Below the pieces are notes generated by a model that saw only the letters and a program-made list of their open reading frames with translations, was not told where the DNA came from and searched no databases. This document shows, in pieces, positions 18,973 to 34,982 of a stretch of 64,000 bases of DNA. The number at the start of each line of letters is the position of its first letter. Within the stretch, counting starts at the first letter, position 1. Position numbers and translations under genes: made by a program. The stretch lies in contig JAOUEV010000003.1 of NCBI GenBank assembly GCA_029858565.1, forward strand, positions 80,074 to 144,073. The letters are read 5' to 3'. This stretch comes from Nitrospirota bacterium (GTDB taxonomy: Bacteria > Nitrospirota > UBA9217).

Positions 18973-19797
18973 TTATGCTTTTGTTTTGATCGCTTTTCTC
19001 ATTTCGCCAGCATGCTGACTGAACCCTCCGAAGCACTCCAGGCGGTCGAGCATGGTCTCCTCGGAGAAGCCGTTCTTCTTCATGATCTCCTTCATCTGTT
19101 CGATGTTCGCGTCCACCGCCGGTCCGCGGCAGCCCCAGCAGCCGAACCGGTTATTGGGACACCAGGAATCGCAGCCGCCGCGGGTGATCGGGCCCAGGCA
19201 GGGTTCGCCGAGGTCGTAGAGGCAGGTGTTCTCATTTGCCTTGCACTCCATGCAGACCGGATACTTGGGCTGCACAATGGCCTTGCCGAGGACCACGTTC
19301 GTAACGATTTTCTCGACCTCTTCCTTCTTTACCGGACAGCCGAATATCTGGAGGTCCACTTTCACATGGGCATCGAGCGGCTGGGCAATATCGTTCGTCT
19401 CGATCGCATGAGAGCCGTAAACCTCCTTTTTGACCCAGGTCGGATCGTTGAAACGGTTCTTGAGCTGGTTCACGCCGCCAAAACAGGCGCAGGAACCAAA
19501 AGCAACAAGCACCTTGGCCCGCTCGCGGATCGTCTTGATCCGGTCGACCTCGTCGGAACGGGTTACACTTCCTTCAATGAACGCGATATCGTAATCTTCG
19601 TTCTTCTCGGTCATGGCCTCGCGGAAGGCGCGCACATCCACGAGCGACAGGAAGTCCAGAAGCGATGCCTCGTTGTTCACGATCTGGAGCTGGCATCCTT
19701 CGCAGGAGGACAGCTCGAAAAAGGCCACTTTCGGCTTTGAAACTGGAATCCCCAGGTAGGTCCGCTGTACTGTCTGGTTCGCGCTCAAGTTGATCAC
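18973..19797 (-). CDS. group 3b [NiFe]-hydrogenase small (delta) subunit
   Basis: SSCEGC, IEGSV, GSCACFGG, GCP, VCMEC, CLGPITRGGC..CP....CWGCRG; the TTG at 19788 is an alternative start. Confidence 0.95.
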   Translation of the reverse strand: MINLSANQTVQRTYLGIPVSKPKVAFFELSSCEGCQLQIVNNEASLLDFLSLVDVRAFREAMTEKNEDYDIAFIEGSVTRSDEVDRIKTIRERAKVLVAFGSCACFGGVNQLKNRFNDPTWVKKEVYGSHAIETNDIAQPLDAHVKVDLQIFGCPVKKEEVEKIVTNVVLGKAIVQPKYPVCMECKANENTCLYDLGEPCLGPITRGGCDSWCPNNRFGCWGCRGPAVDANIEQMKEIMKKNGFSEETMLDRLECFGGFSQHAGEMRKAIKTKA

Positions 19798-19818
19798 CTC
19801 AAAGGCAAAACAATATTA

Positions 19819-19977
19819 GCCACGGAAGATGCGGATAAAAACAAATCTAAAATAAATTATGACACTGAAGACACTGACAAAGCTATGAAACATCTTTTGA
19901 TCGTTCTTAGTATTTTTTAGTGTCCTCAGTGTCTAATTCCTCCGCCTCTTCAGGCCGTTATCCGCATCTTCCGTGGC
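19819..19977. repeat. nested inverted-repeat elements (GCCACGGAAGA family enclosing GACACTGA family)
   Basis: Perfect 20-bp IR gccacggaagatgcggataa (19819-19838) / ttatccgcatcttccgtggc (19958-19977) encloses tgacactgaagacactga ... ttagtgtcctcagtgtc (19860-19933). Confidence 0.85.
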
Positions 19978-19987
19978 AAAAGAAATT

Positions 19988-20893
19988 TCAAATTGCCTCT
20001 TTCAGGTTCATAACGGTCCAGTAATCGAACACCGGCCCCTTGAGGCAGGTGTAGGTGGAGCCGACGTTGCAGCGACAGCATTTGCCCATGCCGCAGTGCA
20101 TGCGCCGCTCCAGGGAAACGAACATCTTCTGCATGGGCACGCCGCGTTCGGCCAGCATGGTGCAGACAGACTTGAACATCACCGGCGGGCCGCAGACAAT
20201 GGCGTAGGTCTGCTCGATGAAGGTATCGGGCCTGCTCTTGATGATATCCTCCAGGATCTTCGGAATGTACCCCACCGGGCCGTCCCAGCCGTTGTCGGTT
20301 TTTTCGAGGATAACGTGAAGGTTGATATCGTCCTTTTTCCACATTTCATACTGGAACTTGAAAAGCATCCGGGACTGGTCGCGCGTGCCGTACACGATGT
20401 CCACGTGCTCGAACATGCTGCGGTGCTCCTGCACATGGGCGATGGGAGACCGGAGCGGGGCAAGGCCCAGACCGCCGGCGATCAGCAGGATGTTGCCGCC
20501 GTGCATCCGTTCCATGGGGAAGCTGGTGCCGAAAGGGCCGCGAATGCCGACCCGCGCGCCCCGGGCAGCGCGGGACAGGACGCCGGTGAGATTTCCTGCG
20601 GTCCTGATGCAGAGCTCCATGTCCTCGTGGTTGCTTGGCGATGAAGAGATCGAAAAAGGCGCTTCGCCGATGCCCGGCAGTTCGAGCATGATGAACTGGC
20701 CGGGCCGGAAGGAGAAGTGCCTGCGGTCCTCGGCGTCAATGATGCGGATGCGGTAGAGGTTCTCTAATTCCGTAAGCTTGTACACACTGGTGATCTCAGC
20801 CTTGTAGGTGTACTCGAAACTGCCGAGGTCGGAGATGCGGTGGTACTTATGATGGCGGGGCACGACATCGTGAAATGCCAGACGGTGGTCCAT
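19988..20893 (-). CDS. group 3b hydrogenase gamma subunit (FAD/NAD(P)-binding, 2Fe-2S)
   Basis: [56 protein letters not shown]. Confidence 0.93.
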
Positions 20894-20895
20894 GT

Positions 20896-21939
20896 TTACT
20901 GCTCCTCTCCCCGGACGCTGGCGATCACCTCGGGTACGGTGATCCCTGCGAGACAGGCTTCGCCGCAGCGGCCGCAGCCCACGCACAGCGACTCCTCATA
21001 GGCCTCAACGAATCCGCGGTGCTTGTGGTAGTAGCGGTACTTGAGACGGCTGCTCCTCTCGGGCCGGAAGTTGTGGCCGCCGGCGACCTCGGCAAAGTCC
21101 ACGACATTGCAGGAATAGAGCGTCTTGGTCTTGACCGCCTTCTGGAGCGACGGGTCAACGGATTCCTCGACCCCGTAGCAGTAGCAGGTGGGGCAGACAT
21201 TGGCGCAGGTTCCGCAACCCAGGCATTTGTCGCCCCACTGCTTCCAGACCGGGGACTGGAACTCCATGTCCAGAATCTTGGTCAGGTCCGTGGTGTCCAC
21301 ACGCGCGGTGAACTTCCGGTTCTTCTCCGCGATGGTCTTCATGTACTGCACGTGGTCGTCCTCGGAAAGGTCAGCGGTCCGGAGGTCCTTCACCATCTCA
21401 AAAGCCTCGGCGGACTGGATCTCGATGAAGTACTTGTCGCCGATGTCAGTGATATTCAGATCAAAACCGTGATGGACCGTGTCGGCGCCCATGGACCTGC
21501 AAAAGCAAAAAGGCTGGGGCTCGCATCCCGTGCCGATGATGAACATGTTCATCCGCTTTGCCGCGTAGTAAGGCATGGGATAGACCGGCCCCATCAGCAC
21601 CTTGTCGAGTTTATTGAGCGCGTTGATGTCACAGGCATGGAGCCCGAAGAACACCAGCGGCTTGTCGATGTTATAATCGATGGTCTTGGTCCAGTCGTCG
21701 TCCTTCATCCGGAATGTGGCAAGTTCCTCGCGGAAGGGAAGGAAGTAGCGCTTTGCCGGAAGCTTGGTGGTGGTGTAGTCAAGCCGGAGGATCTTGAAAT
21801 CCTTTACTTCCTCAAAAGCATAGAGCGGCCTGCCGTTGCGGTCTTTGCCTGTTTCAACCGGTCCCACGACAGTGTTCTTCTCAGCGAGCATATCAAAAAG
21901 CGATCTGAGCTCAGGCTTGTCAATAACGCGGAACAGCAT
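20896..21939 (-). CDS. group 3b hydrogenase beta subunit (4Fe-4S dicluster)
   Basis: [40 protein letters not shown]; GAGGT RBS before ATG 21939. Confidence 0.93.
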
Positions 21940-22061
21940 GGCGACCTCGTTCAATGGATGCTGATGTGATGGCGGTGCGTGTTACAAAGTAATTATAGCA
22001 GGAGATATTACGTGGGAGTGCAATTTACTGTTCTTTGGCAGGTCAGAAAGGGCGTGGGGGC

Positions 22062-24029
22062 CTACAAGGATTGCGCAAGTCGGTGAAGCGTCGGAAAAGA
22101 GTCAGCGACCGCCGCAGTTTCTTCCTTCAAAAGCCTGATTGCTTCGGGAATGTGTTTCCTGAAATATGCTTTGCCTTTCACCATGGTCAGGAATCCATAG
22201 GCGCCGAGCGCCTGCATGTGCCTCTGGAGACGGCAGGGGATCAGGCTTCGGCGGAAGATCTGCTCGTCGAATCCAAGAGCAGCCTTCTTCATCTCTTCTA
22301 TATAGTAAACAAGCAGCCGGTCGCGCAGGAGGTCATGCAGCCGGTAATAAGGGTCCCAGAGGATCGATGCGATGTCGTAGGCAGGCGGGGCCATGCGCGC
22401 TCCCTGGAAATCGATCACCTGAACGGTGTGATCGCTGATCATGATGTTCTGGGACTGGAAGTCACGGTGGATGATGGTCCTGGGACAGTCATCAACGGTC
22501 CTGGCAAGCCTGTGGAACTCCTCTTCCAGCTCCGGCCTGTTCTTGAGATCGATCCCTAGATATCCCTGAACAAACCGGTCGAGAAAATAGTTCGTTTCCC
22601 ACCGCAGATACTCGTAATCAAAGATCCGCGCCTGGAGCAGGGGGCAGGAACCGACACCCTCCGTTGCACGGGAGTGGAGCTTGACCGCAACATCCAGTAC
22701 GCTTTTGTAAATGTTCCTGATCTGATCAGCTGTGCGCGGGAGCTTGAGATAAGCGTACAACGACCGGTCTCCCAGGTCCTCGAACAGTGCCCGTTTTGCA
22801 GTGTGGTGAGACGCGAGCAGCTTCGGCACCGGCACGGCATGGGATTCGAAGAACCGCGTATAGACCAGGTGCCGCTCGAAGTCCGGATCATCGGGCCGGC
22901 ATTCCATCAGGACTGCGGAACGCTCCCCCTGCCTGATGCGATAGTAGCGGCGGTCCGAGCCGCCGAGACCGATCAAGAAAGCAGGGACAGGAAGTGCGGA
23001 GTGCGGAGTGCGGAATGCGAAATGGGAGTCGGAAGCGAAATGCGGGGCAAAAAGAGGGTCCGACAGGTGCACGGTTATTGTTTCAGCAGCGGTTTTCGCT
23101 GGCTGCATTTCCGATTCGTGAAGATCGATCGCATAGTCCGGTCCGATGATCCGGTTCCGGTGTTCGCCGGTCACGATGGCGCCGGGCATGATAATGCAGT
23201 TCCTGAGCTTCGCGCCTGCTCCCACGGTGCTGTAGTTCTCCGCCGCGAGGTAGCCGTCGGCCTCGATGTCTCCGCAGGACGCGGAAGGGGAAATATAGAT
23301 CGTCTCGCCGTCCTTTGCAAGCGCATCAAGCACTGCCCTGCTGTAGGTCGCGGGATTGCCCACGTCGTTCCAGTATGCTCCGGTGACGTCATAGGCCCGG
23401 ACCTTGTGGCCGGCCCTTGACGCGGCGATCCAGGCAACGGTTGCGTGGGAAACGCCGTCGGGCAGGAACTTCAGAATTTCAGGCGAATACACGGCGATGC
23501 CGGTATAGGCAACCTTGTCGGCAACCTTCGTGGGGTCGGGTCTAGATGCGCCGGGATTCTCGACATCGATTATCTGGTCCTGTTTGTCGATGACCACATT
23601 GCTCAGTTCCGGCAGCCTGTGGCAGACCAGCGTTGCCATATTGCCTGAAGATAAATGTGTCTCGATCAGCTTGGCAAAATCGATATCCAGCAGGATGTCC
23701 GAGTTGTGGACAATGAAGTGGTTGCCCAGGAGAAAGCTTTCAGCGTTCTTGAGCGCTCCGCCGGTGCCGAGGATCGGGTCCTCAGGAAAGAAGGTGAAGC
23801 GATCCCGCCAGGGAGACATGGCAGCCCAGTTCATGAGCATCCGGGGCTTCCAGTGCAAATTCATGCCGATCTTGTTGTCGCAGACCTCGGTCAGTTTCTC
23901 GGCAATGCCCTGGATGATAGGCTTGCCCAGGACAGGAAGGAGCGGTTTGGGGATATGGTTCGTGGCCGGCCGGAGCCGTTCGCCGAGCCCGGCAGCGGGG
24001 AGGAAGATGTTGATGGGGAATTTATTCAT
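22062..24029 (-). CDS. fused sugar-phosphate nucleotidyltransferase (MurU-like) and anomeric sugar kinase (AmgK-like)
   Basis: N-terminal AAGLGERLRPAT..PKPL, LGTGGAL, NSD; C-terminal GGSDRRYYR, EDLGD, HRDFQSQN, IDFQGAR, YDIASIL.D, QRHMQALGAYGFL. Confidence 0.88.
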   Translation of the reverse strand: MNKFPINIFLPAAGLGERLRPATNHIPKPLLPVLGKPIIQGIAEKLTEVCDNKIGMNLHWKPRMLMNWAAMSPWRDRFTFFPEDPILGTGGALKNAESFLLGNHFIVHNSDILLDIDFAKLIETHLSSGNMATLVCHRLPELSNVVIDKQDQIIDVENPGASRPDPTKVADKVAYTGIAVYSPEILKFLPDGVSHATVAWIAASRAGHKVRAYDVTGAYWNDVGNPATYSRAVLDALAKDGETIYISPSASCGDIEADGYLAAENYSTVGAGAKLRNCIIMPGAIVTGEHRNRIIGPDYAIDLHESEMQPAKTAAETITVHLSDPLFAPHFASDSHFAFRTPHSALPVPAFLIGLGGSDRRYYRIRQGERSAVLMECRPDDPDFERHLVYTRFFESHAVPVPKLLASHHTAKRALFEDLGDRSLYAYLKLPRTADQIRNIYKSVLDVAVKLHSRATEGVGSCPLLQARIFDYEYLRWETNYFLDRFVQGYLGIDLKNRPELEEEFHRLARTVDDCPRTIIHRDFQSQNIMISDHTVQVIDFQGARMAPPAYDIASILWDPYYRLHDLLRDRLLVYYIEEMKKAALGFDEQIFRRSLIPCRLQRHMQALGAYGFLTMVKGKAYFRKHIPEAIRLLKEETAAVADSFPTLHRLAQSL

Positions 24030-24131
24030 GTGCTAGTATCAATAAGCCTTAAAAGTCAACTGCATTCTCGCGCGGAGGCGCAGAGGCGCAGGGGACGTCA
24101 AAGGCAATTTCTTGGGTTAGAAACTAAAAAA

Positions 24132-24515
24132 TCAATCTTCAAGTCCATTTACGCAGCGAGTTATCCCGTTCTTCATTAGTTCTTCGCCGAAGTTCAGAAG
24201 GTATCCGAGTTTAAGGCCGGTCAAACGGATATGTGTTTGAACCTGCTTTTTGTGCGCTGCGGATGCGTGTTCAACTGATTTCAGCTCGACGATAACTTTA
24301 CTTTCAACAATAACGTCAGCCCGGAATCCCTCATCGAACTGTATCCCTCGAAACTGTATCGGAATGGGTATCTGGCGGTCAACAGTCAAGCCCTGTTCTC
24401 GCAAGACATGAACCAAGGCAACCTCATAGACGCTTTCCAGCAAGCCCGGTCCCAATTCTCGATGGACTTCAATCGCCGCTTCGACAATGATCGTCCCGAT
24501 CTCGTTCTCTGTCAT
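24132..24515 (-). CDS. GxxExxY protein (PD-(D/E)XK nuclease superfamily)
   Basis: LGPGLLESVYE motif, FRADVIVESKVIVELKSV, GYLLNFG; 127 aa. Confidence 0.95.
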   Translation of the reverse strand: MTENEIGTIIVEAAIEVHRELGPGLLESVYEVALVHVLREQGLTVDRQIPIPIQFRGIQFDEGFRADVIVESKVIVELKSVEHASAAHKKQVQTHIRLTGLKLGYLLNFGEELMKNGITRCVNGLED

Positions 24516-24609
24516 TCAGGTTCCCTGTGTCTATTCTTGGCACCCGAAACATGTTTTTTGGTTCCAATAGAGCAAATTCGATTACGAAAAGCCAAAACAA
24601 GAAAAGCTC

Positions 24610-24707
24610 TCTCGCGCAGAGGCGCTGAGGCGCTGAGTATTGCTTTGAGACCAGGACCTGATTCTAAGATTGTGCCTTCCCTGCGAGCTCTGCGCCCCTG
24701 CGCGAGA
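24610..24707. repeat. empty CGCAGAGG inverted-repeat element
   Basis: tctcgcgcagaggcgctgaggcgctgag ... ccctgcgagctctgcgcccctgcgcgaga. Confidence 0.85.
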
Positions 24708-24819
24708 CCGTTTCGAGGTTCGCTTCTTCCTTCCATGACAGCGTCAAGTTGTTTGCGTTCTTGAACTAGATTGGCTTTCCCCTGCGGCTCCGCGCCTCTG
24801 CGGGAAAACCGGTTTTGTT

Positions 24820-26004
24820 CTATTTATACAACAGATAATGCTTCCGAATCTTCTCGAATTCCCTCGCCTCTTCTTTCCACCATGCCTCCATCTCCTTCAC
24901 ATCCTTCCACGCCTCGATGTCCTTTCGCAGACGGTCGGTGCCGGCGAGGATGTCAATGGGCATGTTGATCTCTTCATATTCATAGGGCGGCTGTTTCCAG
25001 GCGAACTCCCGGGGCCAGGTATTGTGGATCGCTTTCAGGATCGCCACGCCGGTCCTGAAAGGCAGGAACTTCTCCCGGTCCGTGATGTGGATCTGGGCTC
25101 CGCCGCAGAGCCTGCCGCAGTGCTTCTGGAACGTGGGCTGGAAATACATGGGGCGGAACACCACGCCAGGCAGCTTGAACTCCTTCAACAGGTTGACGAG
25201 GGTCTCGGGATGGATAAAAGGCGCGCCGAAGATCTCAAAAGGACGCGTTGTGCCGCGGCCTTCGGAAAGGTTCGTGCCTTCGAGCAGGCACATGCCCGGG
25301 TACACGATCGCGCTGTCGAGTATCGGAATGTTCGGCGACGGCAGGACCCAGGGAAGGATTGTTTCGTCGAACCACATCTTCCTTTTCCATCCCTCCATGG
25401 GCACCACCCGATAATGCATGCCGGGATAGAAAGCGTCTTCCAGGTAATGGCCGATCTCGGCAATGGTCATTCCATGGCGCACAGTGATGGGACGGAGTCC
25501 GACAAAGGAGGCAAAACCGGGCTTCAGGACCGGTCCCTCGGTAAAGCGACCGGTGATCGGATTCGGCCGGTCAAGGACCACCACGGCTTTGCCCGCCTCG
25601 TGGCAGGCCTGCATGCAGAGATCAAGGGTCCAGATAAAGGTGTAGTACTTGCTGCCGATGTCCTGCATGTCAATGGCCAGGACATCGATATGCTTCAGCA
25701 TTTCCAATGTCGGCTTCCGCACTTCCCCGTAAAGGCTGTAGACCGGCAGGCCGGTGGCGGGATCGCGGAAACCCTGCCACTCGACCATGTTGTCCTGGGT
25801 CTGGCCAAGGATGCCGTGCTGGGGGCCGAAGAGCGCTGCAAGCTTGAACTTCTTCGATCTTCTGAAGACGTCAACAGCATGCTCAAGCTTGCTGTTCACG
25901 CTCGCAGGATGGGCAACGAGCCCCACACGGCTGTTTTTGAGGTCTTTGGGCCAGAGTTTCTCGACAAGGTCGAGTCCGGTAAAGGTTTTCCTAGGTGACG
26001 GCAT
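24820..26004 (-). CDS. namZ: exo-beta-N-acetylmuramidase NamZ (DUF1343/YbbC)
   Basis: VGLVAHPAS, LFGPQHG, VYSLYG, DMQDIGSKYYTF, LDRPNP, RHGMTIAE, PSPNIP, EGTNLSEGRGTTRPFE. Confidence 0.9.
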   Translation of the reverse strand: MPSPRKTFTGLDLVEKLWPKDLKNSRVGLVAHPASVNSKLEHAVDVFRRSKKFKLAALFGPQHGILGQTQDNMVEWQGFRDPATGLPVYSLYGEVRKPTLEMLKHIDVLAIDMQDIGSKYYTFIWTLDLCMQACHEAGKAVVVLDRPNPITGRFTEGPVLKPGFASFVGLRPITVRHGMTIAEIGHYLEDAFYPGMHYRVVPMEGWKRKMWFDETILPWVLPSPNIPILDSAIVYPGMCLLEGTNLSEGRGTTRPFEIFGAPFIHPETLVNLLKEFKLPGVVFRPMYFQPTFQKHCGRLCGGAQIHITDREKFLPFRTGVAILKAIHNTWPREFAWKQPPYEYEEINMPIDILAGTDRLRKDIEAWKDVKEMEAWWKEEAREFEKIRKHYLLYK

Positions 26005-26039
26005 GGACGGATTATAGTTGCTCACTCCGGGAAGTGCAA
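26005..26039 (-). promoter_or_regulatory. sigma70 promoter of namZ, leaderless spacing
   Basis: On the minus strand TTGCAC-17 nt-TATAAT-6 nt-ATG, with no Shine-Dalgarno. Confidence 0.65.
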
Positions 26040-26045
26040 CAGGAA

Positions 26046-26106
26046 ATTCCGGGAAACCCATTCCGGGAAACCCTGCTTGACAGGCTTTGAACATGGATGA
26101 TACACT
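26046..26106 (+). promoter_or_regulatory. 14-bp direct repeat followed by a sigma70 promoter
   Basis: ATTCCGGGAAACCC twice (26046-26073), then TTGACA (26077-26082), 18 nt, TACACT (26101-26106). Confidence 0.5.
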
Positions 26107-26161
26107 GAAGCTGTTTTGATCATCATGTCGGTGTCGCGAGTTCCTGCCTAAAGGGGATACC

Positions 26162-26938
26162 ATGAAAAAAGCGTTCTTCCTGCTCTTTCTCTGTGGCTTG
26201 ATCCTTGCCCTGAACAACACTGCCCTTGCCCTGTATCAATGGGTAGATAAAGAGGGCAATCTCCATATCTCTGATTATCCTCCGGGGGAGAGTAAAGCGG
26301 CAGAGGAACAGGCTGCTCCGGAACCGGAAAAACCGCGAGCTGTTCCGCAACCATCACCAGCTGTGATACCGCCTCCACCATCGCCGGTTAAAGCATCTCC
26401 AGCGCCAGCACCCGCTGCACCAGGACCGACCCAGCAGGCGCCTGAGGCGGTAATTCCCCAGCCCGCATCGGTCCCGACGATCACCATGCAAGCTGCTCCA
26501 GTGACGCAGCCTGCGCCGATAGAGACCCAGCCGCAACCCATGCCTTTCAGCGCGCCACAACCGGGGCAAAACCCTCCGCCAGGGCTGGTAGCTGCTGTAG
26601 TCGGCGGTTTTTTAATGGTGATCATGGTCATCGGTTTAGCGGTATATATCTATTCTTCGCTCTGCCTGTATCTGATCGCCAAGAAGCGGAACCTTGACGA
26701 GGCCTGGGCAGCCTGGATCCCGCTCCTGCAGATGTGGCCTCTCATGAGCGCAGCGGGAAAACCGCTCTGGTGGATCATCCTGTTGTTCATTCCCTTTGTC
26801 AACGCCGTTATCGGCATCTATCTCTGGATGTGTATTGCCGAGAACCTGGGAAGGAACAAGTGGCTCGGCCTGCTCATGCTGATACCTGTCGTGAACTTTG
26901 TGTTCATGGGCGTGTTGGCGTTTTCCAAGTCGGAGTGA
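26162..26938 (+). CDS. secreted DUF4124-like domain, Pro-rich linker and C-terminal DUF5684-like membrane domain
   Basis: Signal peptide, LYQWVDKEGNLHISDYPP, P/A/Q linker, AWAAWIPL..GKPLWWIILLFIPFVN helices. Confidence 0.82.
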   Translation: MKKAFFLLFLCGLILALNNTALALYQWVDKEGNLHISDYPPGESKAAEEQAAPEPEKPRAVPQPSPAVIPPPPSPVKASPAPAPAAPGPTQQAPEAVIPQPASVPTITMQAAPVTQPAPIETQPQPMPFSAPQPGQNPPPGLVAAVVGGFLMVIMVIGLAVYIYSSLCLYLIAKKRNLDEAWAAWIPLLQMWPLMSAAGKPLWWIILLFIPFVNAVIGIYLWMCIAENLGRNKWLGLLMLIPVVNFVFMGVLAFSKSE

Positions 26939-26952
26939 TCTTGAGTCGGCGG

Positions 26953-27063
26953 GTGGGTTGGGTAGAACGTCCTTATGTAAAATCCGACGTCGATTTGGCA
27001 GAATACTCGTAGTAGCGCAAGGGACCGAAAATCTCGGGCTTTAATGCGTTACATCCGACTTAC
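26953..27063. repeat. degenerate GTAG-type REP doublet (left flank of R-M cassette)
   Basis: gtgggttgggtagaacg...atccgac and atctcgggc...atccgacttac; homologous to 29144-29290. Confidence 0.55.
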
Positions 27064-27187
27064 CGACTAACTCCAGCGTGCAATTCTAGGATTTTGTAGA
27101 GATTTATTCCCCACCTAATAACATTCGCTGTTTTCTTATAAATCCGTTGACAAGGAATCAATTCCGTGTGAAATTAGCTAGCAAACT

Positions 27188-28117
27188 ATGACTAAATCAA
27201 TACATCGTAAGAAACACAGCATAACAAAGGCGAATGTAGTAAGAGAAACAGCTCGCCAGTATTTGCCTCCAATCAAGTTGGTGGACTCTGTGATTTTTCA
27301 GGGCGACGCGCAGCACATTTTAGCTCGTTTACCGAAAGAATCTGTTCAATGCGTTGTAACATCTCCTCCCTATTGGGGACTTAGGGACTATAACATCGAC
27401 GGTCAAATTGGGCTTGAAGAGACCCTTCCGCAGTTCATTAATAGGCTTGTGACGATATTCCGGGAAATCCATCGTGTTCTTAAACCTTCAGGTACTGTAT
27501 GGCTTAATATCGGAGACGGATATACGAGTGGCAATCGAGGTTGGCGTGCTCCCGATAAGAAGAATCCAGCGCGGGCTATGTCTGTGAGGCCAAATACCCC
27601 CGAAGGCCTGAAGCCGAAAGATCTTATAGGAGTTCCTTGGAGATTAGCTCTTGCTTTGCAACAGGATGGCTGGTTTTTGCGTAGCGACATCGTCTGGAAT
27701 AAGCCAAATGCCATGCCCGAGAGCGTCAAGGATCGTCCAACGCGCGCGCATGAGTATATCTTCATGTTTTCAAAGAATGAGAAGTACTACTACGATTATG
27801 AAGCTATAAAGGAGCCACGTGACGACGGAAAGGGGCAGCGGAACAAGCGAAGTGTATGGGACATCAATACGGAACCGTTCAAAGAAGCTCATTTCGCAAC
27901 CTTCCCTTCTAAATTGATTGAGCCTTGTATTAGCGCTGGAAGTCGAGCTGGCGATTTTGTGCTTGATCCCTTCTTTGGCTCGGGCACAGTCGGTGTCGTC
28001 TGCAATCGGCTCGGTCGGAAGTATATAGGCATTGAATTGCATCCGGCGTACATTGCTCTCGCAGAAAAAAGGATGGCATCGAATAATGGGACGAATGGTG
28101 ACAATAAGTCTAAGTAA
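27188..28117 (+). CDS. beta-class site-specific DNA methyltransferase (N4-cytosine type)
   Basis: VTSPPYWGLRDY (motif IV) precedes VLDPFFGSGT (motif I); HFATFP. Confidence 0.93.
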   Translation: MTKSIHRKKHSITKANVVRETARQYLPPIKLVDSVIFQGDAQHILARLPKESVQCVVTSPPYWGLRDYNIDGQIGLEETLPQFINRLVTIFREIHRVLKPSGTVWLNIGDGYTSGNRGWRAPDKKNPARAMSVRPNTPEGLKPKDLIGVPWRLALALQQDGWFLRSDIVWNKPNAMPESVKDRPTRAHEYIFMFSKNEKYYYDYEAIKEPRDDGKGQRNKRSVWDINTEPFKEAHFATFPSKLIEPCISAGSRAGDFVLDPFFGSGTVGVVCNRLGRKYIGIELHPAYIALAEKRMASNNGTNGDNKSK

Positions 28118-29096
28118 TCCGGACCTACAGGTTGATTTTGCTGCAGCATTAGTGCAACTGCGAGATACGTATCTTCAAGAGGCACTCTTTACTACAGTGA
28201 AGAAGATAACGTTGCGATTAGTAGACAGGGATCTGGCGGAATTCGCGACAGATTCTGATTTGGCACTACTTGCCTCGAAAGGACTTCGCGGGGAAATCAT
28301 CTTTGCAACTCCTACGATTCTGCGCGCCAACCCGTATTTGCTGGGTTACTATCGGTTGCTCCTGGGCTACAGTCAAAAACAGTTCTATACGGCTAGTACA
28401 GGGTGTGGCAAATTTAAAGCAATGGAGGCGGACGGTCAGTTGTCATCGACTTGTGAAACTTCGCTTAAAGACTTGTGTAATGGGCTAAACAAGGCCTCAT
28501 CCTACCTATTGAATTCGATGCTCGCTACTTCTCTAACGAGATCATTTCTAGATGATCTGACTCTCCTGACGCTCGGGCCTCAATTAAGAGGTGGGACAAA
28601 CGTAAAGATTGGCGCACGTGGTATTGTGCTCGTATTTGATGCGATAAAGGCTATTGTTGAGGATAATGTCACTCGAACTTCCACAAGAGTCATTGAGATA
28701 GTTAATGCAGCCTCTCGGAAAGTATTGATTGAGTTTGCATCGGACCCAGATATTGTCATTCGGGAACAGCTCTGCTCTCGCAAAGAGGATTACAGAAATA
28801 TCATCGCTATTGAGATAAAAGGCGGAACGGATTTTTCTAACATACATAACAGAATTGGTGAAGCTGAAAAAAGCCACCAAAAAGCGAAGGCACAAGGTTT
28901 TGCCGAATGCTGGACGGTTGTAAATGTCGATCGGATTGATATTCCTACTGCGATGCGAGAATCACCCTCTACTAACAGGTTCTATCGTCTGTCTCAAATA
29001 GTTAGTGGGGAAGGTGCTGAGTACAGTGATTTCGAAGGTCGAATACGATCACTAACAGGAGTGCCAAGCAAGTCGAAAAAACGAAAGAAGAAGTAA
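28095..29096 (+). CDS. type II restriction endonuclease, XcyI/XmaI/Cfr9I-like family
   Basis: GYYRLLLGYSQKQFY, LGPQLRGG, FASDPDI, AIEIKGGTDFSNIHNRIGEAEKSHQKA, ECWT; overlaps the methyltransferase. Family recognised from memory. Confidence 0.82.
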   Translation: MVTISLSNPDLQVDFAAALVQLRDTYLQEALFTTVKKITLRLVDRDLAEFATDSDLALLASKGLRGEIIFATPTILRANPYLLGYYRLLLGYSQKQFYTASTGCGKFKAMEADGQLSSTCETSLKDLCNGLNKASSYLLNSMLATSLTRSFLDDLTLLTLGPQLRGGTNVKIGARGIVLVFDAIKAIVEDNVTRTSTRVIEIVNAASRKVLIEFASDPDIVIREQLCSRKEDYRNIIAIEIKGGTDFSNIHNRIGEAEKSHQKAKAQGFAECWTVVNVDRIDIPTAMRESPSTNRFYRLSQIVSGEGAEYSDFEGRIRSLTGVPSKSKKRKKK

Positions 29097-29143
29097 TGCA
29101 ATTGTTCCAATCAGTGTGCTCCTACCCCCGGTTTGGTCAACTC

Positions 29144-29290
29144 GTAGGTTGGGTCGAACGGTTCATATGGAGCCCAACGAATCATGATTGAGAGATGTTG
29201 GGCAAGATGAATCCTTTTACCAAACCTACCAACTCAGGGTATCGCAAGAGACCGAAGATGTCGGGTCTCGTTGCGCTCTACCCTACCTAC
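29144..29290. repeat. GTAG-type REP cluster (right flank of R-M cassette)
   Basis: GTAGGTTGGG...CCCAAC, GTTGGG...AAACCTAC and GTCGGG...CCCTACCTAC palindromic units. Confidence 0.7.
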
Positions 29291-29441
29291 GAATCCTGCT
29301 CATCAGAACCACCCCACCTAACCTCCCCTTATTACCAAAAGTAGGCGCCTCTAGGGGGAGGGAGGCATCTGCCCCTACCTTGACACCTGCCCGCCGCTCT
29401 CCTACAATTGAACCAGAGATACCCGTCACGTGGAGGATTCC

Positions 29442-31919
29442 GTGAACATCAAGGATTTCGAGGTCGCACTTGCTGATCTTCGCCGCACTGCCGATCCCGC
29501 GGAGTTTCCCTTTGCTACGACCGCGGAACTGTCCACACGCGAGGATGTGATCGGCCAGCAGCGCGCGGTGAGCTCTTTGGAGTTCGGCCTGGGGATCAAG
29601 AACCACGGCTACAATATCTACGTGTCCGGCGTGCCGGGTACGGGCAGGAACAGCATTGTCCGGTCCATTGTAAAGCGGATCTCCCTGGGACGGCCGGTGC
29701 CCGAGGACTGGTGCTTCATAAACAACTTCAAGGACGCAGACCGGCCCCACTCGATCAAGCTCGCGCCGGGCAGGGGGCGGGAGTTCCAGCATGACATGGA
29801 AAAGTTCATAGAGCTCATGCTGGCCGAGATCCCCAAGGTATTCGAATCCAAGGAGTATGAAGAGCAGAAGACCGGGGTCCAGGAACAGCTTGAGCACGCC
29901 AAGGAGGTCCTGTTCGAGGACACAGCGCACCGGGCGCAGGACCTGTCCTTCCAGCTTACGGTGACGCGGACCGGGATCGTGAAGGTCCCGCTGTTCAAAG
30001 GCAAGACCTTGCAACCCGAGGACGCGGAAAAGTTCACGCCCGAGCAGCGGCTCGAGATCGAGGACCGCGAAAAGAAGGTCGATGCCGAGATCCGCGATTT
30101 CCTGTCCAAGGCGCGCCTGCTCGACAAGGAGGCGCAGGAGAAGATCCGCGAGCTGAACCGCAAGATCGCCCACTTTGCCATGGGTCACCAGCTGGATGAC
30201 CTGAAGGTGAAATATCGGGATAATCCGCGCATACCCGACTATCTGAGCGAGGTGGAGGAGGACATTCTCGGGAATCTGAAGGAGTTCCTTGGCCAGACGC
30301 CGGAACTGCCGTTCCATATCGAGGGAATGGACCGCCAGGCCCTGCTGGAACGCTACCGGGTAAACGTGCTCGTTGATAATTCCAGGACCAGGGGCGGGCC
30401 GGTCGTGGAAGAAGCGAACCCGACCTACAATAACCTCGTCGGCAGGATCGAACGGAAAGCGCGGTTCGGCGCGCTGTTCACGAACTTCACCATGATCAAG
30501 TCGGGCTCCGTGCTCCAGGCGAACGGCGGATATCTGATCATGAACGCGCTGGACGTGCTGCGGAACCCCTTTTCCTGGGACGCGCTCAAAAGGATCATCA
30601 AGAAGAGCGAAGTGAAGATCGAGGATATCGCCGAGCTCTACGGCGTTTCCACGGCCGGGATCAAACCCGAACCGATCCCGGTTTCGGTCAAGGTCATCAT
30701 GCTCGGCAGTCCCTGGCTGTACTACCTGCTGTACTCCTATGATGAGGACTTCCGGAGCATCTTCAAGGTCCGGTCGGATTTTGACACACAGGTAAATGAT
30801 TCGGCCGATGAAAAGCAGCGGTACGCGAATTTCATAGGAAACATGGCGGCGGAGGAGAAACTGCTGGCATTCACCCGCGAGGCGGTCGCGGGGATCGTGG
30901 ACCACGCGGCCCGGCTTGCGGAGAAGAAGGGTAAGCTTTCCCTGCGCTTCAGCGATATTTCCGATATTGTGCGTGAGGCATCGTACTGGGCAGGAGAGGG
31001 CGGAGCAGCGGTTGTCGGAGCGGATCATGTGGACAAGGCGCTTGATGCCAGGATCTACCGGGGAAATCTTCTTGAAGAACGCATCCAGGAACTCCTGACC
31101 GACGGGACCATCCTGGTGGATGTGAGCGGCGCGGTAGCCGGCCAGGTGAACGGCCTGTCGGTCTACGACCTTGGGGACTTTTCCTTTGGCAAGCCGTCGC
31201 GGATAACCTGCAGTGTTCATCTGGGGAAGGCCGGCGTGGTGGACATCGAGCGGGAGGCCAAGCTCTCCGGCCGGATCTACAACAAGGGCGTGCTGATCCT
31301 GTCAGGCTATCTTGGCGGAACCTATGCACGGGACAGGCAGCTTTCCCTTTCCGCGAGCATTGCCTTTGAACAAAGCTACGGAGATATTGAAGGCGACAGC
31401 GCCTCGATCGCCGAGCTGGTCGCGCTTCTGTCGGCGGTCACCGGCGTCCCGGCGCGGCAAGACTTCGCGATCACGGGATCGATCAACCAAAAGGGAGAGG
31501 TCCAGCCCATCGGCGGAGTGAACGAGAAGATAGAAGGATTCTTCGCAGTATGCAAGGCACGGGGGCTTACCGGCGACCAGGGCGTGGTGATCCCCCGGAA
31601 GAATGTCATGCACCTCATGCTGAAAAAAGAGGTCGTCCAAGCGGTCAAAGAAGGGAAGTTCCGTATCTACGCGGTCTCGACCGCGGATGAGGCGCTCTTC
31701 CTCATGACCGGAGTCGTTGCTGGAGAGCGGAAGACCGACGGGACCTGGCCTGAGGGGACGTTGAATTATCTTGTGGACAAGCGGCTGAAGGAAATAGCGA
31801 AGAAGCTTAAGGCCGATGAAAAGGCCGAGGCCAAGGATAAGGAAAAGGAAAAAGAAAAGAAGGAAGAGAACAACGAGACACCGCCGCCCAAGCCGACCGT
31901 GCCGGGTGGACCGGGATAA
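29442..31919 (+). CDS. Lon-family (LonB/LonC-like) ATP-dependent protease
   Basis: IGQQRA, GVPGTGRNS, ANGGYLI, GQVNGLSV, catalytic GDSAS and GGVNEKIEGF; GGAGG RBS before GTG 29442. Confidence 0.93.
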   Translation: MNIKDFEVALADLRRTADPAEFPFATTAELSTREDVIGQQRAVSSLEFGLGIKNHGYNIYVSGVPGTGRNSIVRSIVKRISLGRPVPEDWCFINNFKDADRPHSIKLAPGRGREFQHDMEKFIELMLAEIPKVFESKEYEEQKTGVQEQLEHAKEVLFEDTAHRAQDLSFQLTVTRTGIVKVPLFKGKTLQPEDAEKFTPEQRLEIEDREKKVDAEIRDFLSKARLLDKEAQEKIRELNRKIAHFAMGHQLDDLKVKYRDNPRIPDYLSEVEEDILGNLKEFLGQTPELPFHIEGMDRQALLERYRVNVLVDNSRTRGGPVVEEANPTYNNLVGRIERKARFGALFTNFTMIKSGSVLQANGGYLIMNALDVLRNPFSWDALKRIIKKSEVKIEDIAELYGVSTAGIKPEPIPVSVKVIMLGSPWLYYLLYSYDEDFRSIFKVRSDFDTQVNDSADEKQRYANFIGNMAAEEKLLAFTREAVAGIVDHAARLAEKKGKLSLRFSDISDIVREASYWAGEGGAAVVGADHVDKALDARIYRGNLLEERIQELLTDGTILVDVSGAVAGQVNGLSVYDLGDFSFGKPSRITCSVHLGKAGVVDIEREAKLSGRIYNKGVLILSGYLGGTYARDRQLSLSASIAFEQSYGDIEGDSASIAELVALLSAVTGVPARQDFAITGSINQKGEVQPIGGVNEKIEGFFAVCKARGLTGDQGVVIPRKNVMHLMLKKEVVQAVKEGKFRIYAVSTADEALFLMTGVVAGERKTDGTWPEGTLNYLVDKRLKEIAKKLKADEKAEAKDKEKEKEKKEENNETPPPKPTVPGGPG

Positions 31920-31952
31920 AGAATCCTTGAAACTACAAAGGCGAGGCCCTGT

Positions 31953-32143
31953 TTTCGCGCAGAGACGCGGAGACGCAGAGAAAAGCAGATCAGGAACCTT
32001 TAATTCAGCCACGGAAGACGCGGAAGAAGCAAAGCATTTCCTCCGTTGGTTTTAAAGCCGAGATTAAGGCTTTTGATTTTTCCGCCTCTTCCGTGGCCAT
32101 TTTTCTTTTGCCGTTCCCTGCGCCTCTGCGTCTCCGCGCGAGA
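31953..32143. repeat. composite element: CGCAGAGA arms enclosing a GCCACGGAAGA element
   Basis: Outer arms 31953-31980 and 32116-32143; inner arms 32008-32027 and 32078-32097. Confidence 0.85.
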
Positions 32144-32241
32144 ATGGTTTTGTTTCGATGTTTCTCCAGGATCTATGCCCCTATAACCGGCCTTCCATGG
32201 TATAATGCTTCCGCTGTTGGTCATGGGGACAGCAACACTTC

Positions 32242-33300
32242 ATGTACGAATCCATCATTTCCTCGTTCCAGATACCCGGCAGGCTCCTTTCCGCGGAGCG
32301 CTTTGGTGCCGGTCTGATCAACGACACCATCCTCTGCGAGTACTCAGCCGATGGCGAGGTGCGCAAGTATATTCTCCAGCGCATCAATGGACAGGTATTT
32401 CTCCATCCCGGGCAGGTGATGCAGAACGTTGAGCTCGTGACCGGACATATCCAGGACCGGATGCGGCAGGAGGGGATCGCTGATCCCGAGAGCCTGACGC
32501 CGGCCCTGATCTGGACCCGCTCAGGAGGATCCTGTCATGTGGACCAGGGCGGCGGTCACTGGCGCATGTTCCACTTCATCGAGAGCGGAGAGGTATTCGA
32601 CCGCGTCAGGGACGGGAACCACGCGTACGAGGTCGGAAGGGCGCTCGGACGGTTCCAGGCGCTCGTTGCCGATCTTTCTCCTGAAAAGCTTCACGATACA
32701 CTTCCGGGTTTTCACGAAACACCCCGTTATCTCGCGGAGCTTGACCGGGCCGTGAAGACCCATGGAGAACATGCGTCCGCAGTCGGTCCGGAGCTTGCTT
32801 TTGTTGCGGTCAGGAGGTCGCTTGCGGACAGCCTTCTTGATCCGCTTCGCTCGGCCGCGATCCCGCTCCGGGTCGTGCATAATGATCCCAAGGTGAACAA
32901 CATCCTGATCAGCAAGGTCACGGGCAAGGCGCTCTGCATGGTGGACCTGGACACGGTGAAGCCGGGTATCGTGCATTTCGACTTCGGCGACTGCGTCCGC
33001 TCGGCAGCGAATCCGGCGGGAGAGGATGCGGAAGACCTGAACAGCGTGGCTTTTGAGACGGGCTGGTACGAAGCCCTGACCCGGGGATACCTTGAAGAAG
33101 CAAAGTTCCTGACCACGGCCGAGATCGAACTCCTCCCCCTGTCCGTGCGTGTCATAACCTTTGAGCTTGGCATCAGGTTCCTTTGCGATCATGTTCAGGG
33201 AGACACCTATTTCAGGACACGCTATCCCGGGCACAATCTGCACAGGGCGCGGGTGCAGTTCCGGTTGCTGGAGAAGATGGAAGAGGCGTTGAATAAATAA
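32242..33300 (+). CDS. aminoglycoside-phosphotransferase-family kinase (N-acetylhexosamine 1-kinase-like)
   Basis: GLINDT, YILQRIN, FHETP, RVVHNDPKVNN, DLDTVKPG, DFGDCVRS, HNLHRARVQ. Confidence 0.85.
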   Translation: MYESIISSFQIPGRLLSAERFGAGLINDTILCEYSADGEVRKYILQRINGQVFLHPGQVMQNVELVTGHIQDRMRQEGIADPESLTPALIWTRSGGSCHVDQGGGHWRMFHFIESGEVFDRVRDGNHAYEVGRALGRFQALVADLSPEKLHDTLPGFHETPRYLAELDRAVKTHGEHASAVGPELAFVAVRRSLADSLLDPLRSAAIPLRVVHNDPKVNNILISKVTGKALCMVDLDTVKPGIVHFDFGDCVRSAANPAGEDAEDLNSVAFETGWYEALTRGYLEEAKFLTTAEIELLPLSVRVITFELGIRFLCDHVQGDTYFRTRYPGHNLHRARVQFRLLEKMEEALNK

Positions 33301-33313
33301 GTATCAAGACCTG

Positions 33314-33410
33314 TTTCGCGCAGGGACGCAGAGCTCGCAGGGAAGACAAGTATCAAAGAACATGACCACGTCTTTGAGGTTTTCCCAGCGTCTCAGCGCC
33401 TCTGCGCGAG
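33314..33410. repeat. empty CGCAGAGG inverted-repeat element
   Basis: tttcgcgcagggacgcagagctcgcagggaa ... ttcccagcgtctcagcgcctctgcgcgag; reverse-orientation homologue of 24610-24707. Confidence 0.85.
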
Positions 33411-33458
33411 GACGGTTTTGGTGTGTCAGCCTTGTCTCATAATAAAGGAGCAGCCATC

Positions 33459-33833
33459 ATGCCGACCAAGATCGTGATCACCGTGAACCGCGTAAAGCTC
33501 GACGGGGAACTGTACGATACCCCCTGCGCTCAGGCGATCGCTAAACTGCTGCCGCTGTCCGAGCGGCCGTCCGAGTGGGGCGATGAGTTCTACTTCGAGA
33601 TCCCGGTCACCTGCGCGTCAGATCCCACTGCGACCACGAAAGTGCGGGTAGGGGACATCGGGTACTGGCCCCAGGGAAAAGCTCTTGCCATCTTCTTCGG
33701 CCGTACGCCCATGAGCACCGGGCCGGAACCGGTGCCTGCGGGACCGGTGAATTCCGTTGGGAGGATCATCGGAGACGCAGCGGTTTTGCAAAAGGAAAAG
33801 GGAACACGGAAGATCAGGATCGAGAAGGCGTGA
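33459..33833 (+). CDS. cyclophilin-like fold protein (TM1367/DUF369-like)
   Basis: WGDEFYFEIP, GDIGYWPQGKALAIFFGRTP; AAGGAG RBS. Confidence 0.88.
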   Translation: MPTKIVITVNRVKLDGELYDTPCAQAIAKLLPLSERPSEWGDEFYFEIPVTCASDPTATTKVRVGDIGYWPQGKALAIFFGRTPMSTGPEPVPAGPVNSVGRIIGDAAVLQKEKGTRKIRIEKA

Positions 33834-33840
33834 TGAGCGG

Positions 33841-33990
33841 ATCAAGAACCTTTTTCTGCCACGGAAAATGCGGAAGAAGCAGGGCGATTGCTCCAGGGTT
33901 TAAAACCCAAGGGTAACGTCTTTGAATTTTCCGCTTTTTCCGTGGCTATCGTTTTTGCCGTCCTCCGCGCCTCTGCGTCTCCGCGCGAGA
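33841..33990. repeat. second copy of the composite element (left outer arm missing)
   Basis: Colinear with about 31989-32143 including the spacer; ends ctctgcgtctccgcgcgaga. Confidence 0.8.
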
Positions 33991-34003
33991 TAAGGATTTT
34001 GAT

Positions 34004-34819
34004 GTGATCATTTTGAATACTTGTCGAAAGACAGCTTATCTTGGTTGCCTGATCGCATTGCTCTCCGCTTGCGGCACCATGCAGAACGGCCGGGGCTGGG
34101 GCCAGGATGCGACCCTCACGCCGGGATGGGACCGTGTGGGCAGGGCCGCGCTGAACGCCATGGCCGCACCCGAGACCTGGGCGCCTGCCGCGGGTGCCGC
34201 GGCATTTCAGATAGGCCACGCTGACCAGCGGGTGTCTGACCGGGCAATGAGGAGCAATCCGGTATACGGCTCCCGCCATACCGCCGACCGCGTGAGCGAC
34301 CAGCTGCTGTATGCCAGCGGAGCGGTCTGGGTCATTTCCGGGGCAGCGGCGCCGAGCGGAGAGGGGGCGGGCGAATGGACCCTGAACAAGATCAAAGGAT
34401 TCACCATCGAGGCCGGCGGCGGGCTTGCGGCACTGGGCCTGGTCGAGATCACGAAAAAGGGAACGGACCGGGAACGGCCGGACCATACCGACCGGGAAAG
34501 CTTTCCCTCGGGCCATGCAGCGGGCGCATCCTACTTTCTCACCCTGTCGTCGCGCCATGTTGACACCTTTGGGTGGTCGCCCGCTGCGGTGACCGCGAGC
34601 CGCATCGGTCTCGGCACGATCACGGCTGCGACCGCCTGGGCACGCGTCGAGGCAGGCCAGCATTACCCGTCAGATGTGCTGGCCGGGATCGCCGTAGGTC
34701 ATTTTTTCGGAGCTTTTGTGACCGACGCGTTCATCGGGGCTGATAATCCCCTGAATGCCCTGGTCCTGTTTGAACCGGCAAAAGGCGGAGGAGTGGCGAT
34801 GGTGCGGTTCGATTTCTGA
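34004..34819 (+). CDS. PAP2-family phosphatase, probable lipoprotein
   Basis: LSAC lipobox; K..TDRERP, SFPSGH, ARVEAGQHYPSDV. Confidence 0.88.
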   Translation: MIILNTCRKTAYLGCLIALLSACGTMQNGRGWGQDATLTPGWDRVGRAALNAMAAPETWAPAAGAAAFQIGHADQRVSDRAMRSNPVYGSRHTADRVSDQLLYASGAVWVISGAAAPSGEGAGEWTLNKIKGFTIEAGGGLAALGLVEITKKGTDRERPDHTDRESFPSGHAAGASYFLTLSSRHVDTFGWSPAAVTASRIGLGTITAATAWARVEAGQHYPSDVLAGIAVGHFFGAFVTDAFIGADNPLNALVLFEPAKGGGVAMVRFDF

Positions 34820-34844
34820 TACAATCGAAATCAAAAGGCATGTG

Positions 34845-34939
34845 TCGCGCAGTGGCGCAGAGTACGCAGGGAAGTCTAGGTCCCGGGACTGAATTTCGGT
34901 TTCAAGAACTCCTCTGCGCCTCAGCGCCTCTGCGCGAGA
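34845..34939. repeat. empty CGCAGAGG inverted-repeat element
   Basis: tcgcgcagtggcgcagagtacgcagggaag ... ctctgcgcctcagcgcctctgcgcgaga. Confidence 0.85.
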
Positions 34940-34982
34940 TAAGTCGCTTATCTGCCTTGCCTTTGAAAAAGGAGCTCCCTTC

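Follow-up and report, generated by a model that had tools for sequence, protein, structure and literature searches.

Repetitive extragenic palindromic (REP) elements and REPINs are reportedly partnered by the RAYT transposase (Nunvar 2010, Bertels and Rainey 2011, Ton-Hoang 2012). Here we examine a unit of comparable layout built around a different enzyme, found in a 64,000-nt stretch of a Nitrospirota genome (assembly GCA_029858565.1, contig JAOUEV010000003.1, positions 80,074 to 144,073; this whole stretch is called the window). In it, a small gene of the GxxExxY family lies between inverted arms of tandem octamers, and gene-less hairpins with the same arms are dispersed nearby. As in the REP/REPIN-RAYT systems, a small gene stands between inverted copies of a repeat that is dispersed without the gene as roughly 100-bp intergenic hairpins, each gene copy has its own repeat family, and alternating arms form clusters as in bacterial interspersed mosaic elements (BIMEs). 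Unlike RAYT, which is a Y1/HUH enzyme, the protein has a PD-(D/E)XK fold; its arms are tandem direct 7-10-nt units that are not self-complementary, whereas REPs are self-palindromic with a GTAG head; its gene clade appears spread across phyla by horizontal transfer, from which RAYT inheritance reportedly differs; and the Y1 genes of the source genome of the window (G000) carry other repeats. A preliminary description of the locus had called it a candidate REPIN-like mobile system: the term serves as a working comparison, but membership does not hold, since the enzyme is not RAYT and the arms are not REPs.

Miniature inverted-repeat transposable elements (MITEs) and their parent insertion sequence (IS) elements, for example the Correia elements of Neisseria, likewise combine terminal inverted repeats with short, high-copy, gene-less derivatives that are intergenic and co-transcribed with their neighbors. 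The present cassette, however, is without a recognized transposase, no target-site duplication was seen by eye, and the copies in G000 conserve their arms only and not the interior. The intervening sequences of 23S rRNA that hold a four-helix-bundle open reading frame (ORF; PF05635/TIGR02436) also place a small ORF within a transcribed region, between inverted flanks that pair into a long stem with the ORF in its loop, and the TIGR02436 genes of G000 and its relatives lie in tandem-unit inverted repeats of the same design. GxxExxY is nevertheless another gene family, located between protein genes and not in rRNA. Homing endonuclease genes, whether free-standing or intron-borne, including those of PD-(D/E)XK enzymes such as I-Ssp6803I, are similar in being small selfish nuclease genes of patchy cross-phylum distribution, inserted harmlessly between or within host genes, but the cassette involves no intron or intein, has tandem-unit inverted-repeat flanks, and is accompanied by numerous empty copies into which the gene has not moved.

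Paired inverted arrays of tandem octa- or heptanucleotides in Geobacter metallireducens are described, in the available part of Aklujkar 2009 (PMC2700814), as putative IHF/HU 'global regulator binding sites'. They resemble the arms studied here in forming opposite-strand pairs of 3-5 tandem 7-9-nt repeats (e.g. TCTCCGTS) at tens of intergenic places, sometimes beside IS elements; they differ in being interpreted as IHF/HU sites, and the passages that describe them link no GxxExxY gene to them. A literature search, which covered few subscription journals, found no publication linking GxxExxY genes to flanking repeats, and the gene-plus-hairpin unit has the look of a mobile repeat system of a kind not described before.

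A nuclease gene between tandem-octamer arms

The GxxExxY (PDDEXK_3) gene occupies positions 24132-24515 on the minus strand, encodes 127 residues and is the sole ORF of the cassette, in which no recognized transposase was found. It lies inside an imperfect inverted repeat, as the preliminary description had stated; coordinates of arms and hairpins are given without strand. The arm on the 3' side of the gene (24065-24095) consists of the cap TCTCGCGC followed by three CGCAGAGG-type octamers and is complementary at 26 of 31 positions to the outer 5' arm (24778-24808), whose cap, GCGGGAAA, is degenerate; the end of this right outer arm had earlier been read as GCGCGAGA and is here corrected to CTGCGGGAAA. 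Inverted-repeat homology of the 3' arm with other copies extends over 24063-24107. The gene is preceded by a 94-nt leader (24516-24609, minus strand) and, directly upstream, by a complete gene-less hairpin of the same family (24610-24707), whose inner arm (24679-24707) pairs with the 3' arm about equally well (25/28, one gap). In the predicted RNA fold of the sense strand, by both minimum free energy and centroid, the outer arm pairs with the 3' arm and the inner hairpin stays closed. The start codon is without an intact abutting arm, in contrast to most relatives, and the leader contains GGTTCCAA (24560-24567), which matches an outer TTGGAAC motif of related cassettes. On either side lie namZ (NamZ_N + NamZ_C; 24820-26220), upstream, and a murU/amgK-like fusion (NTP_transferase + APH; 22062-24029), downstream; all three genes are on the minus strand, which confirms the co-oriented setting noted before.

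Gene-less copies of the same CGCAGAG-type family stand at 31953-32143, 33314-33410 and 34845-34939, and a lone arm at 33953-33990 adjoins a GCCACGGAA-type hairpin (33858-33946). Together with the copy at 24610-24707, these are the places where the preliminary description had put them (the lone arm at 33963-33990). Its statement that the copies hold a short variable spacer only fails at 31953-32143, where the loop contains a nested hairpin of a different, GCCACGGAAG-type family (32007-32097). With at most two mismatches allowed, GCGCAGAGGCGC has 26 matches against a mean of 11.3 and a maximum of 21 in 100 shuffles. Across the 3.9-Mb genome, 22 arms fit a strict arm expression; 10 of these 22 fall inside 24066-34939 of the window, at most 11 kb from the gene. 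Rfam covariance models run over positions 19000-36000 returned only 4 sub-threshold chance matches (microRNA/snoRNA), so that the hairpins fit no family there.

The protein matches the TIGR04256 GxxExxY model (E 7.4e-40, 135.9 bits against a cut-off of 35, positions 3-115 of 116) and the PF13366 PDDEXK_3 model (E 3.7e-39, 134.1 bits, cut-off 22), and its catalytic motif is intact. The eponymous motif reads G24-L-L-E27-S-V-Y30; E27, D67, E77 and K79 are conserved, the last three being invariant or nearly so in 7 paralogs and 46 sequences. An AlphaFold2 model with a predicted local distance difference test score of 96.7 has a PD-(D/E)XK core (restriction-endonuclease-like alpha-beta), and its best VIA-align matches are all PD-(D/E)XK nucleases: BpuSI (Z 8.0, root-mean-square deviation 3.2, 93 aligned), Cas4 SSO0001 (Z 7.8), NucS (6.8) and Hjc (6.1). 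Because these matches are generic and none is prominent, no subfamily (Hjc, Cas4, restriction enzyme) can be assigned. Foldseek gave no match in the PDB at E<=0.001, a sequence search of solved structures with a paralog profile gave 0 matches at E<=0.01, and none of the PADLOC anti-phage families matched the window protein at E<=0.01; in that set, two paralogs had only weak Cas4/REase-domain matches. The family is large (17,741 clusters at 50% identity, E<=0.001), and the available part of Steczkiewicz 2012 lists the function of PDDEXK_3 as 'Unknown', with multiple transfers. Among the top 150 representatives, 15 have a doubled GxxExxY domain in tandem, a hint of a dimeric working unit. These double-domain proteins measure about 250-295 aa (P0002, P0003, P0004, P0007, P0009, P0010 and 9 more). 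A homodimer prediction (score 0.00, mark 0.42) weighs neither for nor against dimerization.

The arrangement is general in the source genome. G000 has seven GxxExxY genes, and all seven lie between inverted repeats of tandem 8-10-nt units, with inverted-repeat scores of 29-50. A score of 25 corresponds to the 99th percentile of 1500 random pseudo-genes, of which only 5 reach 29 or more; the idea that these genes are enclosed more often than others thus survived comparison with controls. The paralogs are 32-50% identical to the window protein, and E27, D67, E77 and K79 are invariant among them. Six unit types surround the seven genes (CACAGAGA, CACGGATA around two genes, GCCACGGAAGAGGCGGA, CGCTAAGC, CACGAAGG and CGCAGAGG), and all seven genes are co-oriented with their neighbors in operon-like spacers, among them nuoF|nuoG, a pilus-assembly pair and a site downstream of lexA.

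The arm type around each gene recurs in gene-less form in the same genome, where each of the six types has 17-66 further arm copies; for two of these arm-type rows, and for CGCNGAGNCGCNGAGNCGC in the counts across genomes given below, the pattern reads identically in reverse and the reversed-sequence control is uninformative, so that specificity there rests on 15 specified bases. A generic unit motif yields 208 three-unit arrays and 64 convergent pairs in G000, where the reversed genome yields 12 and 0. Hairpins of the CRCNRA type that have two or more units in each arm number 125 in G000, with loops mostly of 30-45 nt, and hairpins occupy many of its intergenic spacers. An unbiased census based on Tandem Repeats Finder recovered only part of these hairpins, and its long-gap array 'pairs' proved to be adjacent independent hairpins around ordinary genes (murA, lexA, hisC and others) and were rejected as enclosed genes.

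Arms, genes and hairpins across genomes and phyla

Twenty related genomes and G000 formed a sample of 21, of which 12 carry GxxExxY genes. A hairpin pattern of two units, 20-50 nt and two complementary units matched 2-74 times in all 12 positive genomes and 0-1 times in all nine negative ones, the reversed control giving 0-1. At the relatives' GxxExxY loci, 23 of 25 score at least 25, and in 22 of them a tandem-unit make-up of the arms is plain to see, L025 being the exception; in the low scorer L007, inspection showed arms that abut the ORF. In a phylum sample of 101 genomes, three or more matches occurred in 13 of the 18 GxxExxY-positive genomes versus 4 of the 83 negative ones, so that the repeats are not equally abundant with and without the gene, an outcome that would have refuted the preliminary idea had it been equal. 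The GxxExxY-less G017 has eight four-helix-bundle genes and solo direct octamer arrays with no inverted partner (GATTCACC x5, GGCACAGA x4; L157-L161). Its arrays (CACCGATT, GGCACAGA) were considered as hairpins and ruled out.

Among the 21 genomes, a window-type arm pattern with 15 specified bases is frequent only in G010 (68 copies), G009 (30), G000 (17) and G001 (7), and these are the only genomes of the sample with a protein at least 70% identical to that of the window. The G001 and G009 orthologs carry CAC-type arms, and a 41%-identical paralog in G010 also has CGC-type arms; with these exceptions, the match between arm type and protein clade is good, not strict.

The cassette extends well beyond the phylum. 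The 80 best relatives of the window protein in a collection of species genomes, 65-80% identical to it, span more than 10 phyla according to the labels of their metagenome-assembled genomes (Bipolaricaulota, Bacillota, Thermotogae, Desulfobacterota, Verrucomicrobiota, Lentisphaerota, Planctomycetota, Nitrospirota, Acidobacteriota, Bacteroidota, Chromatiales and others). These proteins are far closer to that of the window than are its own-genome paralogs, a strong signal of horizontal transfer. Where full 250-nt flanks were at hand, 47 of 68 loci have an inverted repeat scoring at least 30, versus 0 of 59 mock flanks displaced by 700 nt. Most of the cross-phylum loci carry the window's own arms, TCTC(G/C)CGC-AGAGNCGC-NGAGNCGC-AGAG, and one sub-clade has TCTCACAC-(A/G)(A/G)AGGCAC arms. 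In the commonest layout, one arm ends 1 nt before the ATG and the other begins 2-13 nt past the stop codon; the layout of the window (hairpin, gene, arm) and clusters of alternating arms also recur. Window-type arm copies were counted in five genomes holding a window-clade gene: four of them contain 198 (an Acidobacteriota genome), 89 (Verrucomicrobiae), 18 (Thermotogae) and 13 (Desulfatiglandales), often clustered around the gene, and the fifth, a Bacillota genome whose window-clade gene has no arms, contains 2. The remaining GxxExxY genes of these other-phylum genomes again have tandem-unit arms of their own.

In many minimal cassettes the octamer arms are themselves framed, at a distance of about 20 nt, by another inverted repeat, TTGGAAC ... 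GTTCCAA (L046, L052, L057, L058, L075, L077 and others). Their caps have a recurrent G.G mismatch, 5' TCTCGCGC versus 3' GCGGGAGA, which makes the two cassette ends distinguishable. Named hosts include Sphingomonas parapaucimobilis, where a 'GxxExxY protein' gene lies between fabD and fabG with CGCGAAGG-type arms, and a Bernardetia sp., where the gene lies between ade and a guanylyltransferase gene with CACAGAGA-type arms. The Sphingomonas locus (L162), from a cultured organism, is on plasmid NZ_CP155749.1 (482837-483265), and the annotated ORF reads through the 3' arm. Relatives were found in 0 of 50,697 phage records and in 8 of 72,556 plasmid records, all of the latter large non-mobilizable replicons.

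Arm type follows the protein, in a comparison that the preliminary description had suggested. On a quick tree of 123 cassette proteins (130 before exact duplicates were collapsed, with 6 short-flank rows dropped), the 88 rows with a typed arm require 30 changes of arm type versus 41-49 in 300 shuffles, the 35 untyped rows being left out. The same arm type is found in 63-86% of protein pairs at 70-90% identity and in 3-13% of pairs below 60%.

Occupancy of orthologous sites turns over between close relatives. The namZ|murU spacer, 790 nt long in G000, is 107-224 nt long and holds no gene in G001, G003, G004 and G007; in each of these it is occupied by other-family hairpins or arrays, some of them nested. 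In the proposed comparison of filled and empty sites, the gene is thus missing from 4 of 4 relatives, and the other hairpins there leave no clean empty allele. Downstream of lexA, G000 has a CGCTAAG-armed paralog (C142:57080-57430) and G001, of the same genus, has a CACGAAG-armed gene 73% identical to the window protein (L118, C115:21975-22346); the spacer could be a hot spot, or one cassette may have replaced another there. From a run of another study, a contig about 96% identical bridges the window gene to namZ, and 14 of its 19 listed in-gene differences fall at third codon positions, which indicates purifying selection. Contigs of 4 runs showed no empty allele of the window site, uncovered parts in X2, X3 and X6 carrying no weight; apparent 'joints' in them were rejected, their sides being shorter than 30 nt and probably belonging to other repeat copies. 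Small word shares in runs X3-X24 carry no information on habitat.

Gene-less elements also appear to have been copied recently in some genomes. In G009 and G098, many gene-less hairpins are alike in loop as well as arms, a sign that entire elements without a gene were copied not long ago; the assembled contigs of these two genomes showed no cassette whose arms match. More than 10 near-identical hairpins per genome are seen there (for example C8:83-148, C12:5190-5255 and C39:11208-11273 of G009; C5:2022-2095 and C68:2784-2857 of G098). Several of these copies lie at contig ends, and they look like recent bursts.

How the element might move

Based on these observations, we favor, with about as much belief as doubt, a horizontally mobile cassette with MITE- or REPIN-like gene-less derivatives, whose nuclease acts on its own tandem-octamer arms. 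The cassette would comprise the PD-(D/E)XK (GxxExxY) gene and terminal inverted repeats, each of about three tandem octamers behind a TCTC(G/C)CGC cap, and would sit sense-oriented in a short spacer that separates two host genes transcribed together. Hairpins that have these arms but no gene would be its non-autonomous relatives, a relation like that of MITEs with IS elements or of REPINs with RAYTs. Acting on DNA and probably as a dimer, the nuclease would bind the octamer arrays of its arms and could cut the hairpin or cruciform, or close to it; the element might then be copied or moved by host repair or replication, favoring nearby sites and the loops of other hairpins.

A wider form of this proposal, which we put forward tentatively and with more doubt than belief, is that GxxExxY proteins are the nucleases of an unrecognized pan-bacterial class of mobile element. 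Such a single-gene tandem-octamer cassette would spread between phyla, seed REP-like hairpin families and move by structure- and sequence-specific cutting of a hairpin or cruciform, not by known transposase chemistry, and a sister class with four-helix-bundle genes would explain the mobility of rRNA intervening sequences. For PDDEXK_3/GxxExxY, a large family of unknown function, the tandem-octamer arms offer a concrete DNA partner that can be tested for binding, cleavage and mobilization. If the proposal is true, it gives an origin for abundant intergenic hairpin repeats previously read as regulator sites in Geobacter, it adds a non-RAYT, non-transposase route to REP-like repeats, and the parallel four-helix-bundle cassettes suggest how rRNA intervening sequences and their ORFs move. 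Small sequence-specific nucleases with modular recognition of 8-bp units would also be of possible practical interest.

Several observations weigh against a nuclease that moves its own arms. A hydrolytic PD-(D/E)XK nuclease is not known to have strand-transfer chemistry. By eye, no target-site duplication is apparent in 38 empty hairpins and 14 minimal cassettes, a search limited by the weak outward continuation of the inverted repeat, which leaves the true element ends uncertain. In G000 each arm family has a single gene and the paralogs diverged long ago (32-50% identity), so that nothing indicates recent gene movement within this genome. Across phyla, 4 Bacillota loci at 75-80% identity are without arms and about 6 further loci are weak. 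In the phylum sample, 5 GxxExxY-positive genomes have only 0-2 hairpin-pattern matches; the co-variation of arm type with protein clade is partly expected from plain linkage of arms and gene; and the sampled genomes are kin, so that the counts overstate their independence.

Other observations also count against it and point to the main rival, which we consider less likely, in which the gene is cargo: REP-like tandem-unit hairpins would be spread by a host process or another enzyme, and selfish genes, both GxxExxY and four-helix-bundle, would live in their loops. In variants of this model, GxxExxY could be an endonuclease of the homing type, copying itself into same-family hairpins, or it could benefit the element in some way other than moving it. 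TIGR02436 four-helix-bundle genes, which are unrelated to GxxExxY and encode no nuclease, are enclosed in tandem-unit inverted repeats, mostly of other unit types, in G000, in its relatives and in GxxExxY-less genomes. One such gene, in G033, has GGCACAGAGG-type (CACAGAGG-type) arms, so that the nuclease has exclusive claim neither to the architecture nor to the arm type. Four genomes (G033, G051, G092 and G098; 92, 100, 78 and 70% complete) have 14-36 hairpin-pattern matches and no PF13366 match at E<=0.01; the degenerate pattern also catches some non-complementary array pairs in G033. Hairpins nested in the loops of other hairpins mark loops as favored landing sites, and each family has one gene to tens of empty hairpins. 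The loops of gene-less hairpins in G000 are mostly unrelated to one another, and those of at least 60 nt among 45 empty hairpins hold no GxxExxY remnant (none below E 2), which leaves the notion of an empty hairpin as a cassette with its gene deleted unsupported.

Against the cargo model stand the tight junctions (1 nt before the ATG, 2-13 nt after the stop) kept across phyla, which argue that arms and gene are inherited as one unit and were not joined repeatedly. The same arms, moreover, occur in many empty copies in distant phyla together with the same gene clade; some agent of spread must then be present in each, most simply the gene transferred along with the arms. Y1 enzymes do not fit either: G000 has 12 Y1_Tnp matches, flanked by other inverted repeats, and tandem-unit arms are present at 0 of 10 examined, so that a Y1 (RAYT-like) enzyme was rejected as the mover of these arms. 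Whether the nuclease moves the element or is carried by it, the system is either way of the 'autonomous gene plus dispersed palindromes' kind.

An RNA-level device is very unlikely as the explanation but can coexist with a mobile cassette. The arms would pair over a long range in the transcript of the host operon, like the stems of 23S rRNA intervening sequences, and the resulting stem would be cut by RNase III or would hide a ribosome-binding site; the inserted gene would thereby be expressed or silenced without harm to its neighbors, and the empty hairpins would be mRNA stabilizers or processing sites. Strand and leader features agree with this: at 80 loci the gene is on the same strand as 72 callable neighbors and opposite to 15 (the G000 genes being co-oriented in 7 of 7), and the purine-rich arm of minimal cassettes has GAGG/GGAG 8-10 nt before the ATG. 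Given this co-orientation and a motif at Shine-Dalgarno distance, expression probably rides on host transcripts. The predicted pairing of the outer arms points the same way, as does a contig from an RNA library that runs from the end of namZ into the hairpins (24647-24866), for which DNA carry-over is possible, and four-helix-bundle relatives are known from rRNA intervening sequences according to the available parts of PMC11270868 and PMC4990558. Among arm mismatches on the sense strand of 38 cassettes, however, there is no bias toward G:U (30 versus 30), and the arm sequence itself, beyond its pairing, is conserved across phyla; the constraint therefore looks to be at the level of DNA or protein binding and not of RNA pairing alone. 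An RNA device also leaves the spread, the site turnover and the bursts unexplained.

Least probable, indeed very doubtful, is that the GxxExxY gene is only a neighbor of arrays that bind a host DNA-bending or global regulator, a role that the available part of PMC2700814 proposes for the G. metallireducens sites (paired, inverted, 3-5 tandem 7-9-nt repeats at variable distance, ascribed to IHF/HU-type regulators) and that the many hairpin-bearing intergenic spacers of G000 would allow, for each genome has many unrelated unit sequences, orthologous spacers of close relatives hold different families, the same arms accompany the same gene across phyla, and some genomes show near-identical bursts.

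Further repeats in the window and the source genome

The window contains tandem-unit families other than that of the cassette. A GCCACGGAAGATGCGGA hairpin at 19816-19986, with a nested GACACTGA-type hairpin at about 19861-19935, belongs to the arm family that flanks a paralogous GxxExxY gene at C14:144546 of G000. A GACGCTGAGGACACTGAG hairpin of yet another family lies at 12766-12851, GTGAGGCGTGAGG arrays lie at 8883-8924 and 12090-12145, and CTTGTCACTTGTC and GACAAGTGACAAG arms are found 50 kb apart, at 10304-10330 and 61041-61067.

Elsewhere in G000, four-helix-bundle genes lie in inverted repeats at C123:4340-4663, C7:9221-9535, C94:188-508, C93:8503-8826 and C47:36026-36220; they are co-oriented in operon spacers, and the unit types around them include GGATTAAG, GACGAGAG, TTAAGAA and GTGCGAAG. 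Heptamer hairpin families (AGTGCGG, ATTGCGG) are abundant around ordinary genes (for example C47:20519-20590, C122:1417-1614, C76:9985-10022, C14:127946-129306), and the AGTGCGG-type hairpins match the arms of the four-helix-bundle gene on C93. The Y1_Tnp (IS200/RAYT-like) genes, for example at C88:30680, C123:6489 and C82:36954, include several of about 280-325 aa with non-tandem inverted repeats of their own. One of these repeats begins GTAGGTCGGG, like a classical REP. The Y1_Tnp genes and their repeats form a second, separate repeat system in this genome. Back in the window, a CcrM-like adenine methyltransferase (27188-28117) and a LonB-like protease (29430-31919) are encoded between the GxxExxY gene and the downstream cluster of gene-less hairpins.

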